This document shows positions 4,303-42,001 of a stretch of DNA of 64,000 nt, piece after piece (positions within the stretch are counted from its first letter, which is position 1; every line of letters starts with the position of its first letter). The position numbers and the translations under genes are program-made. The notes under the pieces are model-generated. The model saw only the letters and a program-made list of their open reading frames with translations, had not been told where the DNA came from and did not search any database. Origin of the DNA: Clostridia bacterium (GTDB lineage Bacteria > Bacillota > Clostridia > RUG12999). The DNA is taken from contig JAZQYO010000007.1 of NCBI GenBank assembly GCA_045633565.1, positions 8,724-72,723 of the forward strand, read 5' to 3'.

Positions 4303-5427
4303 CTAATTTGCTTTTCTCTTGACGTATGCCGAGAAAAGTGAGTAAATGAGCGCAAAAACCGGCACTCCTATAAGCATTCCGGCAATGCCGAAAAAGCCAC
4401 CGCCCACGATAATCGCAAACATTGTCCAAAATGGCGATATTCCTGTTGAATCGCCAAGTATTTTTGGTGAAATGATGCTGTTGTCAACCTGCTGAAGCAC
4501 CAGCACTAAAACCACAAACCAAATTGCCTGCAGCGGGCTTACCACCATTATCATAAGAGTAGCAATTATTCCACCAATCCACGAGCCGAAATAAGGAATA
4601 AGATTGGAAATACCTATGATAAATCCTATCAGCTCCGCAAAGGGCAGACGGAGAATCCACATTCCTATTGTGCAGATTACACCGACAATTATGGAATCAA
4701 TAATTTTTGCACCGATAAAACCGGAGAAAATCTGGTGTGCGTCACCTGCCACATCAATAATTTTCTGCGCATGGCCCGGTTTTGTGAATGCTTTTACAAG
4801 CATTTTTCCCTGACGAATGAATTTTTCTTTATCATATAGCATGTAAAGGGATATGATAAATCCTAAAATAATATTTATTACACCTCTTGCAAAGGATGTC
4901 ACGCCCGAAAATACTGCGGCAATAGAATCTCCAGAGTATGTAAGCGCAAGGCTTGTTGCACCTTTTACAAGCTTCTGAATATTTTCCGCTACAATAGCTT
5001 CGTATTCTGTATTCTTTATGAATCCCTCAACGGCAGCATAGGCTTTGGGTGCCCATTCCTGAACCTGCAGAGCAAACTGCGCAATGCTTTTGCCAATCTG
5101 AGGAACAATCAGTATGCAGAAACCTGTTATTGCACCCAATACCATCACGTACGCCGATATAATTGATAAAACTCTGCGAAGTCTTGATTTGGGATTGCTT
5201 TTTTTCACCCGCGAAAACCATTTTTCGCATACTTTTACAACAGGGTTTATGAGGTAGGCAATTATAAATCCGTTTACAAACGGAACAATCACCTTTGCTA
5301 TTTTACCTACAGCTCCCCACGCCACGCCAATATGGTTTAAAACTGCCCAAAAGCATAGCGCCGCTGCAATAACCAAAAATGCGTACACCGCAATGGTGGT
5401 ATATTTTTTGTTGAATTCCGGCTTCAA
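4303..5427 (-). CDS. AI-2E family transporter (PerM/UPF0118 permease)
   Basis: 374 aa polytopic membrane protein with N-terminal TM, multiple hydrophobic segments and typical AI-2E length and organisation. Confidence 0.75.
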   Translation of the reverse strand: MKPEFNKKYTTIAVYAFLVIAAALCFWAVLNHIGVAWGAVGKIAKVIVPFVNGFIIAYLINPVVKVCEKWFSRVKKSNPKSRLRRVLSIISAYVMVLGAITGFCILIVPQIGKSIAQFALQVQEWAPKAYAAVEGFIKNTEYEAIVAENIQKLVKGATSLALTYSGDSIAAVFSGVTSFARGVINIILGFIISLYMLYDKEKFIRQGKMLVKAFTKPGHAQKIIDVAGDAHQIFSGFIGAKIIDSIIVGVICTIGMWILRLPFAELIGFIIGISNLIPYFGSWIGGIIATLMIMVVSPLQAIWFVVLVLVLQQVDNSIISPKILGDSTGISPFWTMFAIIVGGGFFGIAGMLIGVPVFALIYSLFSAYVKRKAN

Positions 5428-13337: not shown

Positions 13338-14456
13338 TTATTTATACCTTTCAATTACCTTTTCCACCCCATTTGCAATGTATTTCACCGAGGCAAGTGC
13401 CTCCTCAATTGTGTTGCCTCCGGTACCCACTTCTACAATTACTGCTCCGGGGGCAGTATGCCCGTTAAACCGGGAAGTCCTGAGATTTATAGGCCGGGCA
13501 AAATTTTCTTCCTCCTCCAAAAAGCATTTTTGCAAGTGTGCAGCAAATTTAAGGTTTGTCCGCCACCTGTCATGTTTCAGACCAAGCTCGTCAGTGCCTA
13601 CTACAAGCATTACCTGTGCCACCTTTTCACCGTCTATTGTAGTTGTCAGCTTGGTTTTTACTCCCTCTTTATTAATTATCGAGTCCCTGTGCAAATCAAG
13701 CACAATTTTTATCTGCGGATTTTCAGAAAGTGCGGCTTCTACCGCTTTGCATGAGCGTGCATAGGAATTATTATATTCCGGATAATCAAACAGGTCTGTG
13801 ATGTGCTCACACTTTATATCCCTTTTTTCAAGTTCTTTTTTGAGTTCTTTGCCAATCCGTATCATATTATAATCGGTGTCGGTGGTGCGGTCCTCAGCTG
13901 TATGGGGAAAATTATACTTTGACGTGGGTGCATAGCTTTCGGTGGAATGAGAATGGACAATCAACACCTGAGCCCCCTCTTTTTCAAGGCTGAAAGCGGG
14001 CGAAGATGAAATGTCCCCTGCCGATACTTTGTAGGAGGTTTCGTTGTTTATTGTAACTTTTTCGCCTGCGTCCGTTTTCCCACCCCCGGAACTTACAGTT
14101 TTTTCAAGAACATCTGCCGTCTCCTTTTCCTCCGCCAAGGGCATATCCTCTATGTAAGACGGGTTTTCGCCGTCATAATAAAAGTTCCCCGAAATTGTCC
14201 CGGCAACGGTGTCGGCATTGGTAAAGTCCCCGCCAAAAATCATGTCGCAAAGCTTCCCGGCATAGCTGACAAACCCCTCCGTTTTGTAGATATATTCACC
14301 TTTTTGGGCATCTGCCGCAAGTACATAATTTGATTTAAGCCTAGGGCGGATAAATGTCGCAAGCGTGTCTGCACAAAAACATACCATAAGCGCCAGAAAC
14401 AGCGCTCCCACCCCTTTTATACAAAACTTTCTAAGGCTCTGCCTTGCTTTTGACAC
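13338..14456 (-). CDS. spoIIP: stage II sporulation protein P (SpoIIP-family peptidoglycan hydrolase)
   Basis: Core motifs VLIVHSHSTESYAP.., ..YARSCKAVEAAL.., IVLDLHRDS match the SpoIIP family, with an N-terminal signal-anchor. Start placed at GTG 14454-14456 (VSKARQ..), preceded by RBS GGGGGTGAG. The ORF-track ATG at 14531 has no RBS. Confidence 0.75.
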   Translation of the reverse strand: MSKARQSLRKFCIKGVGALFLALMVCFCADTLATFIRPRLKSNYVLAADAQKGEYIYKTEGFVSYAGKLCDMIFGGDFTNADTVAGTISGNFYYDGENPSYIEDMPLAEEKETADVLEKTVSSGGGKTDAGEKVTINNETSYKVSAGDISSSPAFSLEKEGAQVLIVHSHSTESYAPTSKYNFPHTAEDRTTDTDYNMIRIGKELKKELEKRDIKCEHITDLFDYPEYNNSYARSCKAVEAALSENPQIKIVLDLHRDSIINKEGVKTKLTTTIDGEKVAQVMLVVGTDELGLKHDRWRTNLKFAAHLQKCFLEEEENFARPINLRTSRFNGHTAPGAVIVEVGTGGNTIEEALASVKYIANGVEKVIERYK

Positions 14457-14516
14457 TTTCTCACCCCCTTTTCTTATAATATATATGCGGGAAGCGGACA
14501 AAATATCAAAAAAAGC

Positions 14517-14545
14517 TTGACTTTGCGCCAAAACTGTTATATAAT
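14517..14545 (+). promoter_or_regulatory. sigma-A type promoter of rpsF-ssb-rpsR (TTGACT-17-TATAAT)
   Basis: Near-consensus -35 and -10 boxes with 17-nt spacer, about 65 nt upstream of the rpsF start. Confidence 0.65.
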
Positions 14546-23158: not shown

Positions 23159-24028
23159 TCAACCTCTTTTAAGTCTTGAAACAATTCTATCAAGACTTTC
23201 TTTATCATAGAACTCTATTTCTATTTTACCCTTTTTCTTGCCACTTATAATTTTTACTTTTGTTCCAAGTGCACCCTCAAGAAGCTTTTCAATGTCGTCC
23301 TTTACAACGCTGAACGCTTCCCTTACCTTAGGTAGCCTGTCCGGCTTTTTAAGCAAGTTTACATAATTTTCTAATTGTCTTACTGACATATCTTTTTCAA
23401 TTACAAGATACGCAGTTTTTTCCTGCAAATCCTTATCCTCAATTGCAAGTAAAGTTCTTGCGTGTCCGGCAGAAATTTCAAGCTGTTCAACAAGTTTTCT
23501 GACAGGTGCCGAAAGGTTTAAAAGACGCATGCAATTTGTGATTGCACTACGGCTTTTTCCTACCGATTTACTTATTTCTTCCTGAGTCATTTCAAATTCC
23601 TCAGCAAGACGTGCATAACCCGCAGCTTCTTCAATGGGGTTTAAATCTTCTCTCTGCAGGTTTTCAATCAATGAAAGTTCTGCAACGGCTTTGTCGTCAA
23701 ATTCATATACAACTGCCGGAATTTCTTTAAGCCCAGCCATTTTTGCTGCACGCCAACGACGTTCACCGGCAATTATAGTATAAAATCCATTTTCATTCTT
23801 TTTAACTGCTATCGGCTGAAGAAGTCCATGTTCGGCTATTGAATCAGAGAGCGCCTGAAGTTTTTCAGGGTCAAATGTTTTTCTCGGCTGATTCGGATTT
23901 GGTTCAACCTGCGTAAGCTTAAGAGAATTTACCGGTTTAAGCTCATTTTCTTCTTTTTTTATAAGTATATCCGCATCAGGAATGAGCGCAGATATGCCTT
24001 TACCGAGGCCTCCGGTCTTTTTTGCCAT
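23159..24028 (-). CDS. parB: chromosome partitioning protein ParB/Spo0J
   Basis: GLGKGISALIP.. and ParB box (GERRWRAA) plus HTH. Sits immediately downstream of parA. Confidence 0.9.
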   Translation of the reverse strand: MAKKTGGLGKGISALIPDADILIKKEENELKPVNSLKLTQVEPNPNQPRKTFDPEKLQALSDSIAEHGLLQPIAVKKNENGFYTIIAGERRWRAAKMAGLKEIPAVVYEFDDKAVAELSLIENLQREDLNPIEEAAGYARLAEEFEMTQEEISKSVGKSRSAITNCMRLLNLSAPVRKLVEQLEISAGHARTLLAIEDKDLQEKTAYLVIEKDMSVRQLENYVNLLKKPDRLPKVREAFSVVKDDIEKLLEGALGTKVKIISGKKKGKIEIEFYDKESLDRIVSRLKRG

Positions 24029-24807
24029 TATTTTCTGCCTCCTTTAACCTTATTTTGTTTTAAGAACTCTTTTGCAAGAAGTTCGTAGCATTCAGCACCT
24101 TTGGAGCTTGGGTCATAAACATTTATTGGCTGACCATAGCTGGGCGCTTCGCCCAAACGCACATTTCTGGGTATAAGTGTTGAATAAACCTTACCCGGGA
24201 AGTGATTTTTAACCTCTTCAACCACCTGAATTCCAAGGTTTGTCCTTGCATTAAGCATTGTCAGGAGTATTCCTTCAAGCTCAATATCGGCGTTAAGTGA
24301 TTTCTTTATACGATTAATGTTTCCCATTAAAAGTCCAAGCCCTTCAAGCGCATAGTATTCGCATTGAATTGGAATAAGAACGGTATCAGTCGCCGTCAGA
24401 CAGTTTAATGTAACAAGGCCAAGAGATGGGGGACAGTCAATAAAAATAAAATCAAAGTCATTTTTTATCTGCTGCACCGCATTTTTCAGGCGAAATTCTC
24501 TGTTATCCATATTTACAAGCTCAATTTCAGCACCTGCAAGCTCTTCACACGAATTAATAATGAATAAATTTTTAAAGTCTGTCTTTTTAACGGCATCTTT
24601 TATAGATGAATCTTCAATTAATACACTATAAATACTGTTTTCAGCCGTTTTTTCCATTCCAAGCCCACTTGTAGCGTTTGCCTGGGGGTCAACATCAATC
24701 AAAAGTACTTTTTTTCCTCTTTCAGCAAGCATTGCAGAAAGGTTTATTGCGGTTGTTGTTTTACCGACACCGCCTTTTTGGTTAGCTATTGCAATTATTT
24801 TACTCAT
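24028..24807 (-). CDS. parA: chromosome partitioning ATPase ParA/Soj
   Basis: Deviant Walker A KGGVGKTT. 259 aa. Confidence 0.9.
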
Positions 24808-24909: not shown

Positions 24910-24925
24910 TGTTTCACGTGAAACA
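24910..24925. promoter_or_regulatory. parS centromere site (TGTTTCACGTGAAACA)
   Basis: Perfect 16-bp palindrome matching the Firmicutes parS consensus tGTTtCACGTGAAACa, about 100 nt upstream of parA. Confidence 0.8.
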
Positions 24926-24948: not shown

Positions 24949-24964
24949 TGTTTCACGTGAAACA
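24949..24964. promoter_or_regulatory. second parS site embedded in a 32-bp perfect palindrome (24941-24972) that also forms the gyrA terminator
   Basis: AAGAGGAATGTTTCACGTGAAACATTCCTCTT. On the minus strand it is followed by TTTTGTGTTT, 14 nt after the gyrA stop. Confidence 0.8.
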
Positions 24965-24985: not shown

Positions 24986-27502
24986 TTATTCAGTAGTTTC
25001 TGTGGCTTCCACAGTCTGAGCTTCTTCAGCAACTTCTTCAGCCTCTTCTTTGTCAACAACTGCAATTGATGCAACCTTGGTTTCATCGGTAACTTTTATA
25101 AGTTTAACACCCTGAGAAACTCTGCCGCATGTCCTTATTTCTTCTGAGCTGATTCTGATTACAACTCCACCGGTTGTTATAAGAATCAGGTCTTCTTCGC
25201 CGGTCACAGCTTTAATGCCAACTATCTCACCGGTCTTTTCGGTAATTGCATAGTTCTTAACGCCCATACCTCCTCTGGCCTGAACTTTGTATTCGTCAGT
25301 CGGAGTACATTTACCAAAGCCATTTTCGCTTACTGTTAGCAGAAGCTTTCCTTCCTCTTCAATTTCCATACCTATAATATAGTCGTTGCCTTTGAGCTTC
25401 ATTGCACGAACGCCACGGGCATTTCTGCCGACAGTTCGAACATCTGATTCCTCAAATTTTATTGCCATACCACCGTGTGTTGCAATCATAATGTTCTTGC
25501 TGCCATCGGTCATTTTAACGTCAATCAACTCATCATTTTCATCAAGGTTTATTGCAATAAGACCGCCCTTAATTCTGCTGTTATAATGCGATAAAACGGT
25601 CTTTTTGATAACCCCAAATTTGGTTAACATAATTAAATATTTATCCTCTTCAAACTCCTTAACAGGAATCATGGCAGTTATCTTTTCACCCTCATCAAGC
25701 TGGAGAAGATTAACAAGCGCCATACCTTTGGATGTTCTTGAGGTTTCGGGAACTCTGTAAGCTTTAATCTTAAACATTCTGCCCTTGTTACTGAAGAACA
25801 TTATAAAGTCATGTGACATGCAGGGGAGAATGGTGTCGGCAACGTCTTCCTCACGGGCTTTAAGTCCGGTAATGCCTCTGCCTCCACGATGCTGAGTTTT
25901 ATAAGTATCAATTGACTGACGTTTGATGTAACCAAACTTTGTAAGAGTGAGAATATTTTCTTCCATAGGAATTAAATCTTCGTCCTCAATAAAGTCAATT
26001 GCAGGCTCAATTGTGGTCATTCTGCCGTCGCCATATTTGTCACGGATTTCAAGAAGCTCTGTTTTAATCTGTTCCATAAGAGCGCTTCTGTCATTAAGCA
26101 GTCTGTTATATTCATTAATTTTGACGCCAAGCATGTCATATTCTTCGTCAATTTTCTCGCCGTTTAATCTTTGCAGCTGACCCAGCTTCATTTCAAGAAC
26201 GCTCTGCGCCTGGATTGCAGACATTCCAAAGCGCTCCATCAGACGCTCTTTTGCGTCATCATAGGATTCTCTGATAACTTTAATAACTTCATCAATATTG
26301 GAAAGTGCAATTCTAAGACCTTCAAGGATATGTCTTCTTGCCTCTGCTTTTTCAAGGTCAAATTTAGTTCTGCGGGTAACAATTTCCTCCTGGAAACTGA
26401 TAAAACTTGCCAGAATTTCTTTAAGACCCATCGTTTTGGGTTTACCGTCTGAGATTGCAAGCATATTTATTGAAAAGCTATCCTGAAGTCTGGTATATTT
26501 ATAAAGCTGATTTAAAACAACCTGCGGATTAGCATCTCTCTTTAAGAATATTTCAAGTCTGATGCCTACACGGTCGGAAGAATGGTCGTCAATATCAGAA
26601 AGACCTTCAATTTTCTTGTCTTTAACCAGTTCAGCAATGGATTCAACAAGCATTTTCTTGTTAACCTGGTAGGGGAGCTCGGTAACAATAATTGAAGATG
26701 TACCGTCTTTGTGCTCCTCAATTTCAGCTTTTGCACGGATAATTACCTTTCCTCGACCTGTTTCATAAGCACTTCTGATACCGCTGATGCCCATGATAGA
26801 CGCTTTTGTGGGGAAATCCGGACCTTTTATGTAGTCCATCAGCTCGTCCACAGTAATTTCCGGGTTGTCAATCTGCGCAACTACCCCGTCTAAAACCTCT
26901 TCTAAGTTGTGCGGCGGAATATTTGTCGCCATACCAACCGCAATACCCGAGCTGCCGTTGATTAAGAGAGTGGGAACTCTGGTAGGGAGTACAACCGGCT
27001 CTTTCCTTTTTTCGTCAAAGTTGGGTGCAAAATCAACGGTGTTTTTATCAATATTTTCAAGAAGTACATTGGCAATCTTGCTCATTCTTGCTTCGGTATA
27101 ACGGTAAGCAGCCGGAGGGTCTCCGTCCACCGAGCCGAAGTTACCGTGACCGTCAATAAGCGGATATCTCATAGAGAAATCCTGCGCAAGACGAACCATC
27201 GCATCATAAACAGAAGCATCACCGTGGGGGTGATATCTACCGATAACGTTACCAACAGTGGTAGCCGATTTAAAAAAGGGCTTGTCAACCGTCAGATGCT
27301 CTTCAAACATAGAATATAAAATACGTCTGTGAACAGGTTTTAAACCGTCACGAACATCAGGAAGGGCACGGGAAACTATAACGCTCATTGCATAGTCAAT
27401 AAACGCTTCCTTCATTCTTTTTTCTATATCAACATTAACAATGGTTTGTGTATCAAAATATTCCTCAAAATGGGAATCTTCATATTTTTTATTTTTAGCC
27501 AT
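24986..27502 (-). CDS. gyrA: DNA gyrase subunit A
   Basis: 838 aa with active-site region ..AAMRYTEARM.., and a C-terminal beta-pinwheel with acidic tail. Confidence 0.97.
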
Positions 27503-37995: not shown

Positions 37996-38011
37996 GTGTA
38001 TGAAAATTTAA

Positions 38012-38150
38012 TCGGGGTGCTGATTTTCGGCTGAGAAAGCGATTGCTTAACCCGCGAACCTGATACGGATAATGCCGGCGTAGGAATAATAATCGATTAT
38101 TTTGCTCTACTGGGATTTCCCGGTGGAGCTTTTTTAATCCATCAGGAATT
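38012..38150 (+). promoter_or_regulatory. TPP (thiamine pyrophosphate) riboswitch
   Basis: GGGGTGC..GGCTGAGA..AACCC..GAACCTGATACGGATAATGCCGGCGTAGGAA matches the THI-element consensus (CTGAGA, ACCTGATCTGGATAATGCCAGCGTAGGGAA). The downstream gene is thiT. Coordinates are approximate (+/-2). Confidence 0.85.
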
Positions 38151-38182
38151 TTCACTATTATAATAATGAAAAGGTGGTTTTA

Positions 38183-38746
38183 ATGAAAACAAAAAAACTT
38201 ACTCTTGCAGGAATGCTTATTGCTCTTGCCACCGTTTTGTCCCTTATCAAGATTTTTGATATGCCCTATGGAGGCTCGGTTACGGCAGGAAGCATGGTTC
38301 CTATAATTATTTTTTCCATGCAGTGTGACACAAAATGGGGCATAACCCAGGCAATATGCTATTCCATTATACAGTTGATGCTTGGCTGGTACGCACCTCC
38401 TGCCCAGAACTTTGTTTCCTTTGCAGCAGTAATTTTGCTGGATTATGTAATAGCTTTCGGCGGACTTGGACTTGCAGGCCCGATAGCTCGCAGACTCGGA
38501 GGAGGCCGGTCGGCAACAGCCGTCGGCGTGATTTTGGTTCTTTTTATAAGATTTTTATGCCATTTTTTGTCAGGAATTTTAATCTGGGGAAGCTTTGCTC
38601 CCGAAGGTCAACCGGTATGGCTCTATTCGCTGCTGTATAATGGTGGATATATGCTCGGAGAAACGGTTGTAACATTGGCAGCAACCCTTTTGCTCCTTTC
38701 ACGCAAAGGCCAAAACTGTAAAAATTTACCAAAAAGCGGTGTATAA
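38183..38746 (+). CDS. thiT: thiamine ECF-transporter substrate-binding (S) component ThiT
   Basis: 187 aa with 6 TM helices, preceded by a TPP riboswitch. ATG 38183 has an AAGGTGG RBS. The ORF-track GTG 38174 is also possible. Confidence 0.8.
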   Translation: MKTKKLTLAGMLIALATVLSLIKIFDMPYGGSVTAGSMVPIIIFSMQCDTKWGITQAICYSIIQLMLGWYAPPAQNFVSFAAVILLDYVIAFGGLGLAGPIARRLGGGRSATAVGVILVLFIRFLCHFLSGILIWGSFAPEGQPVWLYSLLYNGGYMLGETVVTLAATLLLLSRKGQNCKNLPKSGV

Positions 38747-38799
38747 ATTTTGCCTGATAGCATGGACAAATGTCATATTAGGCGGAAAAATACACAAAT

Positions 38800-38860
38800 T
38801 TGTTCAATAAATTTGAACAAAACGTAAAAAATTGAAAAAAATGTTCAAAAATATTGAACA
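38800..38860. promoter_or_regulatory. two palindromic operator-like sites TGTTCAA-N5-TTGAACA overlapping the promoter of the spo0A-like gene
   Basis: TTGTTCAATAAATTTGAACAA (38800-38820) and TGTTCAAAAATATTGAACA (38842-38860). The second overlaps the -35 (TTGAAC, 38854-38859) of a TTGAAC-17-TATACT (38877-38882) promoter. Confidence 0.45.
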
Positions 38861-38914
38861 CTCTCCTTTTTTGTGTTATACTAAAGGCATCAAATACAGC
38901 AAGGAGAGACAAAA

Positions 38915-39700
38915 ATGGGAAACACAATACTTATAATTGACGATAACAGAGAGTATGGGGACAAGCTTAAAAAGGAACTGGCTGTTTATCCGGAATTTGG
39001 TGAAATTTTAAATGCAACCGGTGGCAGGGCGGGCCGTGATATGGCTGCAAGATATAATGTCGATGTTATTGTTTGTGAAGCTATCATGAGAGATGGAGAT
39101 GGATTTTCGGTTGTTGAGGATATTTTGAGGACTTCCGTTACAAAGCCTGTTATAATAATGATATCTTCATTTACCAATGAAGCCATGATTGCAAGGGCGG
39201 CGTCAAGCGGTGCGTCTTTTTATCTGCCCAAGCCTTTTGACGCTACAACTCTTTACCAGCACATCTCGTTTTTCACCAAAATGAAGGAAAAACCTGTTAA
39301 TGCCATGATAAGCGAGACGGACGATGACGAGTATGACATTGAAATAATGGTAAGCAATATGATAAAAACCATTGGTGTTCCGGCACACATTAAAGGATAT
39401 CAGTTCCTGCGTGATGCCATAATGTGGGTGGTTGAGGATATGGAGCTTATCAACGCCGTAACAAAAGAGCTTTATCCCGGAATTGCGAAGAAGCATAAAA
39501 CAACCTCATCAAGGGTTGAACGGGCAATTCGCCATGCTATAGAGGTGTCCTGGCAGAGAGGCGACGTGGAAACATTAAACAAGCTTTTCGGTCACACTGT
39601 GAAATTTACCAAGGACAAGCCCACAAACTCAGAGTTTATCGCAATGATAGCTGACAGGATAAGACTTCAGCTTAAACGACAGGGCAAAAAAGCGTCTTAA
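38915..39700 (+). CDS. spo0A: Spo0A-like response regulator (Spo0A_C DNA-binding domain) with Glu at the predicted phospho-acceptor position
   Basis: The C-terminal region [53 protein letters not shown] is diagnostic of Spo0A_C. The receiver domain has DD (res 9-10) and the conserved K (LPKPF). Where Spo0A has LVLDIIMP (D56) this protein reads IVCEAIMR. Confidence 0.85.
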
Positions 39701-40857: not shown

Positions 40858-40890
40858 AAAAGCTGCCCACCGGGCAGCTTTTACTTTTTT
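40856..40890. terminator. bidirectional terminator (AGCTGCCC-accg-GGCAGCT flanked by A5 and T-runs)
   Basis: Serves azlD on the plus strand and the XRE gene 40881-41096 on the minus strand. Confidence 0.65.
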
Positions 40891-41096
40891 GGATAAGGCT
40901 TTTTCTCGTCAGTAAGTCCTGCTAAATAGTCCATACTGGTATCAAGGGCAATCGCAAGTTTTCTGCATTGTTCAAATGTAAAATATCTTTTTCCGCTTTC
41001 GAGTTTGGAATAATCACTTTGGTCAATTCCTGTCAGCATCTGCATTTTTACCTGTGTATATCCCTTTTCTTTTCGTAGTTCTTTTAATCTGTTCAT
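40881..41096 (-). CDS. XRE-family HTH transcriptional regulator (tandem paralogue 2)
   Basis: 71 aa with HTH (KGYTQVKMQMLTGIDQSDYSKLESGKR). C-terminus ..EKKPYPKK is identical to the tail of the upstream paralogue. Confidence 0.6.
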   Translation of the reverse strand: MNRLKELRKEKGYTQVKMQMLTGIDQSDYSKLESGKRYFTFEQCRKLAIALDTSMDYLAGLTDEKKPYPKK

Positions 41097-41100
41097 ATTA

Positions 41101-41325
41101 TCATTTTTTTGGATAAGGCTTTTTCTCTGAAGAAACGCCGCAAATATAGTTCATATCTACATCGTAATAGCGGGCTAATAATATAACACTGTCTAAAGGA
41201 ATTCTTGTTTTACCAAGCTCATAGTCGGAGTATGTTTTCTGACCTATATTCAAAAGTCTTGCTATTTCTGTCTGATTTTTGTCTGCATCTTCACGAAGTC
41301 CACGAATTCTCTCAATTGCATCCAT
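41101..41325 (-). CDS. XRE-family HTH transcriptional regulator (tandem paralogue 1)
   Basis: 74 aa with HTH (QTEIARLLNIGQKTYSDYELGKTR). Same ..EKKPYPKK C-terminus. The 3' DNA (TTTTTGGATAAGGCTTTTTCTC) is repeated at the end of both genes. Confidence 0.6.
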   Translation of the reverse strand: MDAIERIRGLREDADKNQTEIARLLNIGQKTYSDYELGKTRIPLDSVILLARYYDVDMNYICGVSSEKKPYPKK

Positions 41326-41834: not shown

Positions 41835-41919
41835 TGGTGGAGAGAGATGGATTCGAACCATCGAAGGCGGTGCCAACAGATTTACAGTCTGCCCCCTTTG
41901 GCCACTCGGGAACCTCTCC
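41835..41919 (-). tRNA. tRNA-Tyr (anticodon GTA), 85 nt with long variable arm, CCA encoded
   Basis: Reverse complement GGAGAGGTTCCCGAGTGGCCAAAGGGGGCAGACTGTAAATCTGTTGGCACCGCCTTCGATGGTTCGAATCCATCTCTCTCCACCA gives a cloverleaf with 7-bp acceptor, CUGUAAA anticodon loop, GATGG-TTCGAAT-CCATC T-arm and 13-nt variable arm. Confidence 0.9.
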
Positions 41920-41925
41920 AAAAAA

Positions 41926-42001
41926 TGGAGCTGGTGATGGGACTCGAACCCGCGACCTGCTGATTACAAATCAGCTGCTCTACCAATTGAGCTACACCAG
42001 C
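41926..42001 (-). tRNA. tRNA-Thr (anticodon TGT), 76 nt, CCA encoded
   Basis: Reverse complement GCTGGTGTAGCTCAATTGGTAGAGCAGCTGATTTGTAATCAGCAGGTCGCGGGTTCGAGTCCCATCACCAGCTCCA. Acceptor, D and anticodon stems pair. The T-stem has one C-A mismatch. It lies 6 nt upstream of tRNA-Tyr on the same strand. Confidence 0.85.

Follow-up and report, generated by a model that had tools for sequence, protein, structure and literature searches.

In Bacillus and Clostridium, kinases and phosphotransferases hold the decision-making role over Spo0A. To our knowledge, the transcriptional control of the spo0A gene itself is almost uncharted beyond Bacillus and a few clostridia, and we know of nothing on it for Monoglobales-like bacteria of guts and digesters. 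Mandic-Mulec et al. are said to have described in 1995 a SinR-type repressor that acts directly on spo0A. The cis-elements of spo0A promoters (B. subtilis Pv/Ps; C. difficile) are 0A boxes, which have a TGTCGAA core and occur singly or as 10-bp tandems. Spo0A contacts G2, C4, and G5 of the box, and single changes at these positions cut binding ~10-fold (PMC3485338). SinR, an Xre-type tetrameric repressor of B. subtilis that is reported to repress spo0A, has the half-site consensus GTTCTYT, and its tetramer can engage two dyads by looping (PMC3163267). DeoR of B. subtilis, a member of the SorC family, uses a TTGAACA/TGTTCAA half-site and acts as a tetrameric repressor on two half-operators upstream of the promoter (PMC11229326).

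The locus described here lies in a 64-kb stretch of DNA (hereafter the window) from an uncultured, Monoglobales-like lineage. The window is origin-proximal, containing dnaA, gyrA, and parA-parB (Table 1). Its spo0A ortholog encodes the Pfam domains Response_reg and Spo0A_C, scores 261 bits against the Spo0A equivalog model TIGR02875 (NCBIfam; cut-off 200), and is 82% identical to the closest named homolog, the Spo0A of a Monoglobales MAG, the best match in the protein collection reaching 91%. The gene is preceded by the thiamine transporter gene thiT, which has its own promoter, TPP riboswitch, and terminator, and is followed by azlC and azlD.

Upstream of spo0A stand two exact dyads of the form TGTTCAA-N5-TTGAACA, termed O1 (distal) and O2 (proximal). 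Like 0A boxes they are cis-elements at spo0A, but unlike them they are built of TGTTCAA heptamers in a 7-5-7 inverted order. Reading of the sequence confirmed the two palindromes with identical TGTTCAA/TTGAACA half-sites and a 5-nt AT spacer that the initial annotation had described; the close pairing claimed there also holds, although the centers (38810 and 38851) are 41 bp apart rather than 40 bp, with 22 bp from edge to edge. Relative to the start site inferred from the -10 element, O1 is centered at about -79 and O2 at about -38. Extended by a single base at both ends, O1 becomes a 21-bp palindrome (TTGTTCAA...TTGAACAA), and its conserved core is GTTCAA-N5-TTGAACA (38802-38819).

Table 1. 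Features of the spo0A upstream region and of its surroundings in the window, with majority-base fractions from the alignment of eight orthologous promoters.
Feature	Positions	Strand	Sequence or basis	Majority-base fraction
DNA upstream of O1				0.62
O1 (distal operator, putative)	38801-38819	.	TGTTCAA-TAAAT-TTGAACA, exact dyad	
O1 left half-site				0.98
O1 spacer				0.72
O1 right half-site				0.98
Inter-operator segment, A-rich	38820-38841	.	AAACGTAAAAAATTGAAAAAAA	0.81
O2 (proximal operator, putative)	38842-38860	.	TGTTCAA-AAATA-TTGAACA, exact dyad	
O2 left half-site				0.95
O2 spacer				0.93, itself well conserved
O2 right half-site (= -35)				1.00, invariant in 8/8
-35 hexamer	38854-38859	+	TTGAAC; consensus promoter scan; same bases as O2 right half-site	
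Promoter spacer				0.73
Extended -10	38874-38882	+	TG-t-TATACT (TG 38874-38875, TATACT 38877-38882); consensus promoter scan	0.89; TGTGnTAnAnT in 8/8 E-clade orthologs
RBS	38901-38908	+	AAGGAGAG; sequence; 6 nt before ATG; kept in orthologs	
spo0A ortholog, 261 aa	38915-39700	+	Response_reg + Spo0A_C; ATG at 38915	
TPP riboswitch	38003-38104		Rfam RF00059, 70 bits; 38003-38129 with adjoining intrinsic terminator	
thiT	38174-38746		thiamine transporter gene	
dnaA	32363-33676			
gyrA	24986-27502	-		
parS sites (two, perfect)	24910-24925, 24949-24964		TGTTTCACGTGAAACA	
parA-parB	23159-24807	-		
spoIIP homolog	13338-14531	-	TIGR02867, 157 bits (cut-off 123)	

The dyad symmetry is well beyond chance. 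Each dyad specifies 14 bases, and the exact pattern matched the window twice, at O1 and O2 only; 5.5e-4 exact dyads are expected per 64 kb from base composition, none appeared in 100 dinucleotide-preserving shuffles of the window, and the chance of a second dyad less than 60 bp from a first is ~1e-6. A search of the 64-kb window with the 12-base core and one mismatch found no further site, and allowing up to three mismatches in the dyad added matches at chance level only. The heptamer TGTTCAA alone is not enriched in the window (13 found vs. 16 expected), which indicates that the signal resides in the paired dyads. No second locus with the dyad was found in the window or in the sequence flanking 11 related loci. 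The matches listed from a metagenome contig scan with TGTTCAAWWWWWTTGAACA (at least 120) fell mostly within ORFs or came from unrelated organisms, with no spo0A promoter of this clade among them, and a viral contig scan gave 48 matches, which is chance level.

Among the scorable matches listed from unrelated viral and metagenome contigs, 23 of 167 (such contigs include L113, L163, L174, L178, L191, L209, and L239) have the dyad enclosed in a larger composite palindrome, TTCA(T/A)nnn-N8-TGTTCAA-N5-TTGAACA-N8-nnn(A/T)TGAA. L198, which is outside the filtered set of 167, has two dyads 66 bp apart with composite-palindrome flanks as judged by eye.

The spo0A promoter is predicted to be of the sigma-A type with an extended -10, near consensus and self-sufficient. 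Its -35 hexamer matches TTGACA at four of six positions and is separated from the -10 by 17 bp, so the earlier claim that the downstream palindrome covers the -35 of a TTGAAC-17-TATACT promoter proved correct. The right half-site of O2 is the predicted -35 itself, and the same is true in two distant relatives (L086 and L089); by eye, none of the other three TTGAACA half-sites has a -10 at the right distance to serve as a -35 element. Since the half-site and the hexamer coincide, occupancy of O2 would exclude sigma region 4. We regard it as rather probable, a little beyond an even chance, that the palindromes are paired cooperative operators of a twofold-symmetric protein other than Spo0A, which would block the -35 and repress spo0A. 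Each 7-5-7 dyad would bind one dimer, and the 41-42 bp between centers, about four helical turns, would let the two dimers sit on one face of the helix and bind cooperatively as a dimer of dimers. With O2 occupied and sigma region 4 kept from the -35, the spo0A promoter would be repressed; the binder would be encoded elsewhere in the genome. The A-rich segment between the operators occupies the position expected of an UP element or of a bendable linker joining two bound dimers. Such an arrangement resembles lambda OR1/OR2 and lac O1/O3, in which one dyad site lies over a core promoter element and a second lies in a helical phase permitting cooperativity; the resemblance is one of architecture only and implies no protein family.

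Conservation was evaluated in orthologous promoters from contigs obtained by exact-protein look-ups (89, 86, 85, 84, 83, and 82% Spo0A identity) and from L001 (74%), which came from a protein scan of genome contigs; that scan was dominated by the universal Spo0A peptide EFIAMIAD, and the close relatives among the matches listed were only L001 and L002. Orthology is shown by shared synteny of citrate synthase, coaD, rsmD, NlpC/P60, thiT, and spo0A. The initial annotation had made its proposal depend on the presence of the motif in orthologous promoters, and both palindromes occur at the same positions and spacing in all eight (74-91% protein identity), with centers 41 bp apart in seven and 42 bp apart in one. 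The half-sites are conserved (0.95-1.00) while the upstream flank, the O1 spacer, and the promoter spacer drift (0.62-0.73); spacer variants across the orthologs are TAAAT, GAAAT, TAAAA, ATAAT, ACTAT, and AATAT, and AAATA, AATTA, and AAACC. Conservation specific to the half-sites, together with the constant distance, indicates selection on two dyad-symmetric protein-binding sites in helical phase. About 30 bp upstream of O1 there is also a weak 0A-like box, TGTCATA (38771-38777), which is only moderately conserved, its counterparts in several orthologs being TGTCGCA, TGTCGTA, and TGTCATA.

More distant relatives show how the element has changed. L089 (60% identity) has a perfect AGTACAA-ATTAC-TTGTACT dyad, the right half of which again forms the -35 at 17 bp from TGaTATAAT, and an imperfect second site, GTTCAA-GTTTT-TTGATT, 42 bp upstream. 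In L086 (67%), GTACAA-AATAC-TTGTAT lies at the -35, and a second, imperfect site is found ~41 bp upstream. In L089, the -35 TTGTAC and the left half GTACAA have changed together, a T-to-A change on the left being mirrored by an A-to-T change on the right, as expected for a symmetric binder. No convincing dyad was found in L088, L263, L264, and L265 (56-63% identity), which keep TTGAAA/TTGAAT, the 17-bp spacer, and the extended -10; the D-clade orthologs retain an extended -10 of the TGnTAtAnT type. The core promoter thus predates the operator and is complete without it.

The sites could also be read as those of an activator, in which case a dimeric protein at about -38 (class II) and about -79 (class I) would recruit RNA polymerase and the "-35" would be kept as a half-site and not as a sigma contact. 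The centers of O1 and O2, as placed from the -10, are close to classical activator positions and resemble the class II and class I positions of Spo0A-activated spoIIG; the -35 matches the consensus at only four positions, and extended -10 promoters can function without -35 contact. However, the relatives without a dyad keep a -35-like hexamer, the 17-bp spacing, and the extended -10, so that the promoter looks self-sufficient, and a half-site that fully coincides with the -35 is likelier to clash with sigma region 4 than to make a productive contact. Activation is thus quite unlikely. The main argument for a repressor over an activator is that the promoter is complete without the dyad, and repression is suggested by the -35 overlap together with the relatives that have the same core promoter but no palindrome.

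An RNA-level function of ALTERNATIVES, in which the dyads would form hairpins or one long helix in thiT read-through transcripts and serve as a terminator, processing site, or translational attenuator, is highly improbable. A terminator scan of the interval between thiT and spo0A, which covered the window only, predicted none; the folding energy of the 181-nt intergenic RNA is far lower than that of shuffled sequences (z = -6.6), and the promoter spacer contains a conserved CTCC able to pair with GGAG in the RBS. Yet a low folding energy is a trivial consequence of having the same palindrome twice, and the stems are A/T-rich, 7 bp long with only two G-C pairs, and are not followed by a conserved U-tract. 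The changes in L001 break the pairing and are not compensatory, no Rfam family matches, the consensus fold reaches only -1.8 kcal/mol, and the CTCC-GGAG helix is without covariation. The dyad is also kept in L089, whose upstream gene is transcribed divergently, so that no read-through transcript would cross the site; on this basis, the element works at the DNA level.

The octamer CTCTCCTT (38861-38868, promoter spacer) is complementary to the RBS. Its CTCC is kept in six of seven orthologs at 82% identity or above, L091 having ATCC, and these orthologs have thiT upstream; L001, with its strong upstream terminator, lacks CTCC. In read-through transcripts CTCC might serve as an anti-SD, with weak support from the fold.

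By linkage, the locus points to Spo0A itself: across all loci, no other regulator gene stays next to the operators. In B. subtilis, spo0A is known to be autoregulated through sites in its own promoter, and the same has been proposed for C. difficile; here a Glu55 Spo0A (see below) would bind the dyads as a symmetric dimer through inverted degenerate 0A-like boxes (TGTnCAA) and repress its own promoter. The half-site and TGTCGAA share the outer TGT..AA, binding of Spo0A to inverted repeats in addition to tandem ones has been proposed (PMC3163267), and the 40-bp distance of two true 0A boxes in L088 matches the dyad spacing. The best-formed dual dyads further coincide with the clade in which the acceptor Asp has become Glu, where homeostatic negative feedback would make sense. 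The boxes themselves argue otherwise. C4 and G5, both contacted by Spo0A (PMC3485338), are replaced in the half-site, which bears out the earlier statement that it is not a canonical 0A box; the best match to the box in 38780-38890 has two mismatches in seven, at these two positions, a level at which chance alone would give 3.2 matches in 111 bp. The exact 0A heptamer is absent from the window promoter, from L001, and from the aligned E-clade intergenic regions, while an exact box precedes 23 of the 79 spo0A genes examined from other Clostridia, versus 2 of 79 control segments. In those 79 promoters, the boxes are single or in 10-bp tandem (L006 and L045, for example, have tandem or single boxes) and never form N5 inverted pairs like the 7-5-7 repeats here.

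The protein side points the same way. The recognition helix (S199-E210) is invariant in all 23 aligned proteins, B. subtilis Spo0A included, so no change of specificity is expected. The half-site nevertheless varies (GTTCAA vs. GTACAA) between lineages with nearly identical DNA-binding domains, and the upstream region of L088, whose Spo0A has the same domain, contains a TGTCAAA and a canonical TGTCGAA box. Autoregulation through the dyads is accordingly a rather unlikely reading, and the comparison of boxes and domains leans toward a different regulator as the binder.

The two L088 boxes (62% identity; 4816-4822 and 4856-4862) have identical flanks, TAATAATGTCrAATAAA, and lie 63 and 103 bp upstream of the -35. 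In another clade of uncultured Clostridia, ~22 of the 79 spo0A loci (L005-L079; e.g., L032 5880-5960, L042, and L066) have a different pair of 15-bp dyads around the spo0A promoter, T(G/A/T)GAA-N5-TTCCA near -50 and TGTAA-N5-TTACA over the start site, always 56-59 bp apart. No regulator gene adjoins these pairs, the neighbors being HI0933-like and UPF0029 genes. Paired dyads that differ by lineage may therefore be a more general feature of spo0A promoters.

To look for other binders, the region was compared with 17 consensus patterns of known regulators, none of which fits. LexA, Rex, CodY, TnrA, cre, CRP, FNR, ComK, PadR, and ARG boxes gave no better-than-chance match, CodY excepted; the CodY box matches O2 at 11 of 15 positions (0.34 expected), but its core TTCWGAA falls in the non-conserved spacer. 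SinR operators are likewise inverted repeats starting with GTTC, but their half-site is GTTCTYT as opposed to GTTCAAW here: GTTCAAT and GTTCAAA differ from the consensus at two of seven positions, which is chance level, and the inverted-repeat pattern GTTC-N8-GAAC (GTTC-N9-GAAC here) has six mismatches in 14 at best. No SinR homolog linked to these loci was found. The B. subtilis DeoR operator has the identical 7-base half-site and was the only hit of a literature search for the heptamers, but its arrangement is different, TTGAA-N6-TTCAA (converging) as against TTCAA-N5-TTGAA (diverging) here; the best regional match to the DeoR operator pattern has two mismatches in ten and is not conserved in the orthologs. 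The shared heptamer may serve as a lead on the specificity of the HTH and not as a sign of membership. No paper linking Monoglobus Spo0A to such a motif was found.

The outer pentamers TGTTC...GAACA also recall parS, the ParB/Spo0J site (TGTTNCACGTGNAACA), in an origin-proximal window, but parS is 16 bp long with a CACGTG core, whereas the dyads are 19 bp long with a variable A/T spacer. The best regional match has six mismatches in 14, and true parS sites are located elsewhere in the window: two perfect copies, 39 bp apart, lie between gyrA and parA-parB, that is, in the parAB upstream region.

Regulator genes within the window were also considered. None of its OmpR-type, AraC-type, and DeoR/GlpR-type regulators has a dyad near its gene. 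Two tandem XRE/RstR-like HTH genes (40881-41325; 71 and 74 aa, both products ending in KKPYPKK) follow azlD only in the window and in its closest relative, L091, with no dyad nearby, and are absent after azlD in L081, L092, and L083; they were rejected as the cognate regulator. The pair adjoins a small Cys-rich membrane ORF and tRNA-Tyr and tRNA-Thr genes (40881-41325 and 41835-42001), and its occurrence in the window and L091 suggests a lineage-specific insertion.

The window Spo0A has an unusual receiver domain. The acceptor residue was read from an alignment with B. subtilis Spo0A and 21 homologs, complemented by a residue tally, and is Glu55 (VCEAIM; codon 39077-39079) in place of the Asp that is D56 in B. 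subtilis; other receiver residues (D9/D10, S84, and K106) are retained. Every one of the 15 full-length homologs with at least 74% identity has Glu at this position, and all homologs at 53-67% have Asp. Among more distant Spo0A homologs without the Asp, P0071, P0074, and P0079 have Glu, P0107 Asn, P0108 and P0118 Ser, and P0069 Pro, according to the automatic alignment. A spoIIP homolog in the window scores above its cut-off, indicating that the sporulation gene set is at least partly retained despite the Asp-less Spo0A. Replacement of Asp by Glu can mimic phosphorylation in some receivers, and in Spo0A it is reported to be insufficient alone (PMC4395418).

The clade with Glu is the clade with the two perfect dyads, and a causal link between them is speculation. 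At a low probability, Spo0A might be independent of the phosphorelay in this clade, so that the amount made would set its activity, the dual operator would be the main input, and a dedicated repressor would replace kinases and phosphotransferases in the decision-making role; as a variant, Spo0A(Glu55) itself might bind the dyads in a new symmetric mode.

Judged from the nucleotide patterns, the dyad pair is real and strongly conserved, and it is most likely a paired operator of a well-known, textbook type, the repressor site of a regulator other than Spo0A. An operator of this type would not surprise a specialist; the Asp-less Spo0A that it precedes adds interest. If this Spo0A is constitutively active or independent of phosphorylation, control at the promoter becomes the main regulatory input. 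The dyad pair provides a cleanly defined, conserved cis-element that could lead to a regulator upstream of the master sporulation factor.
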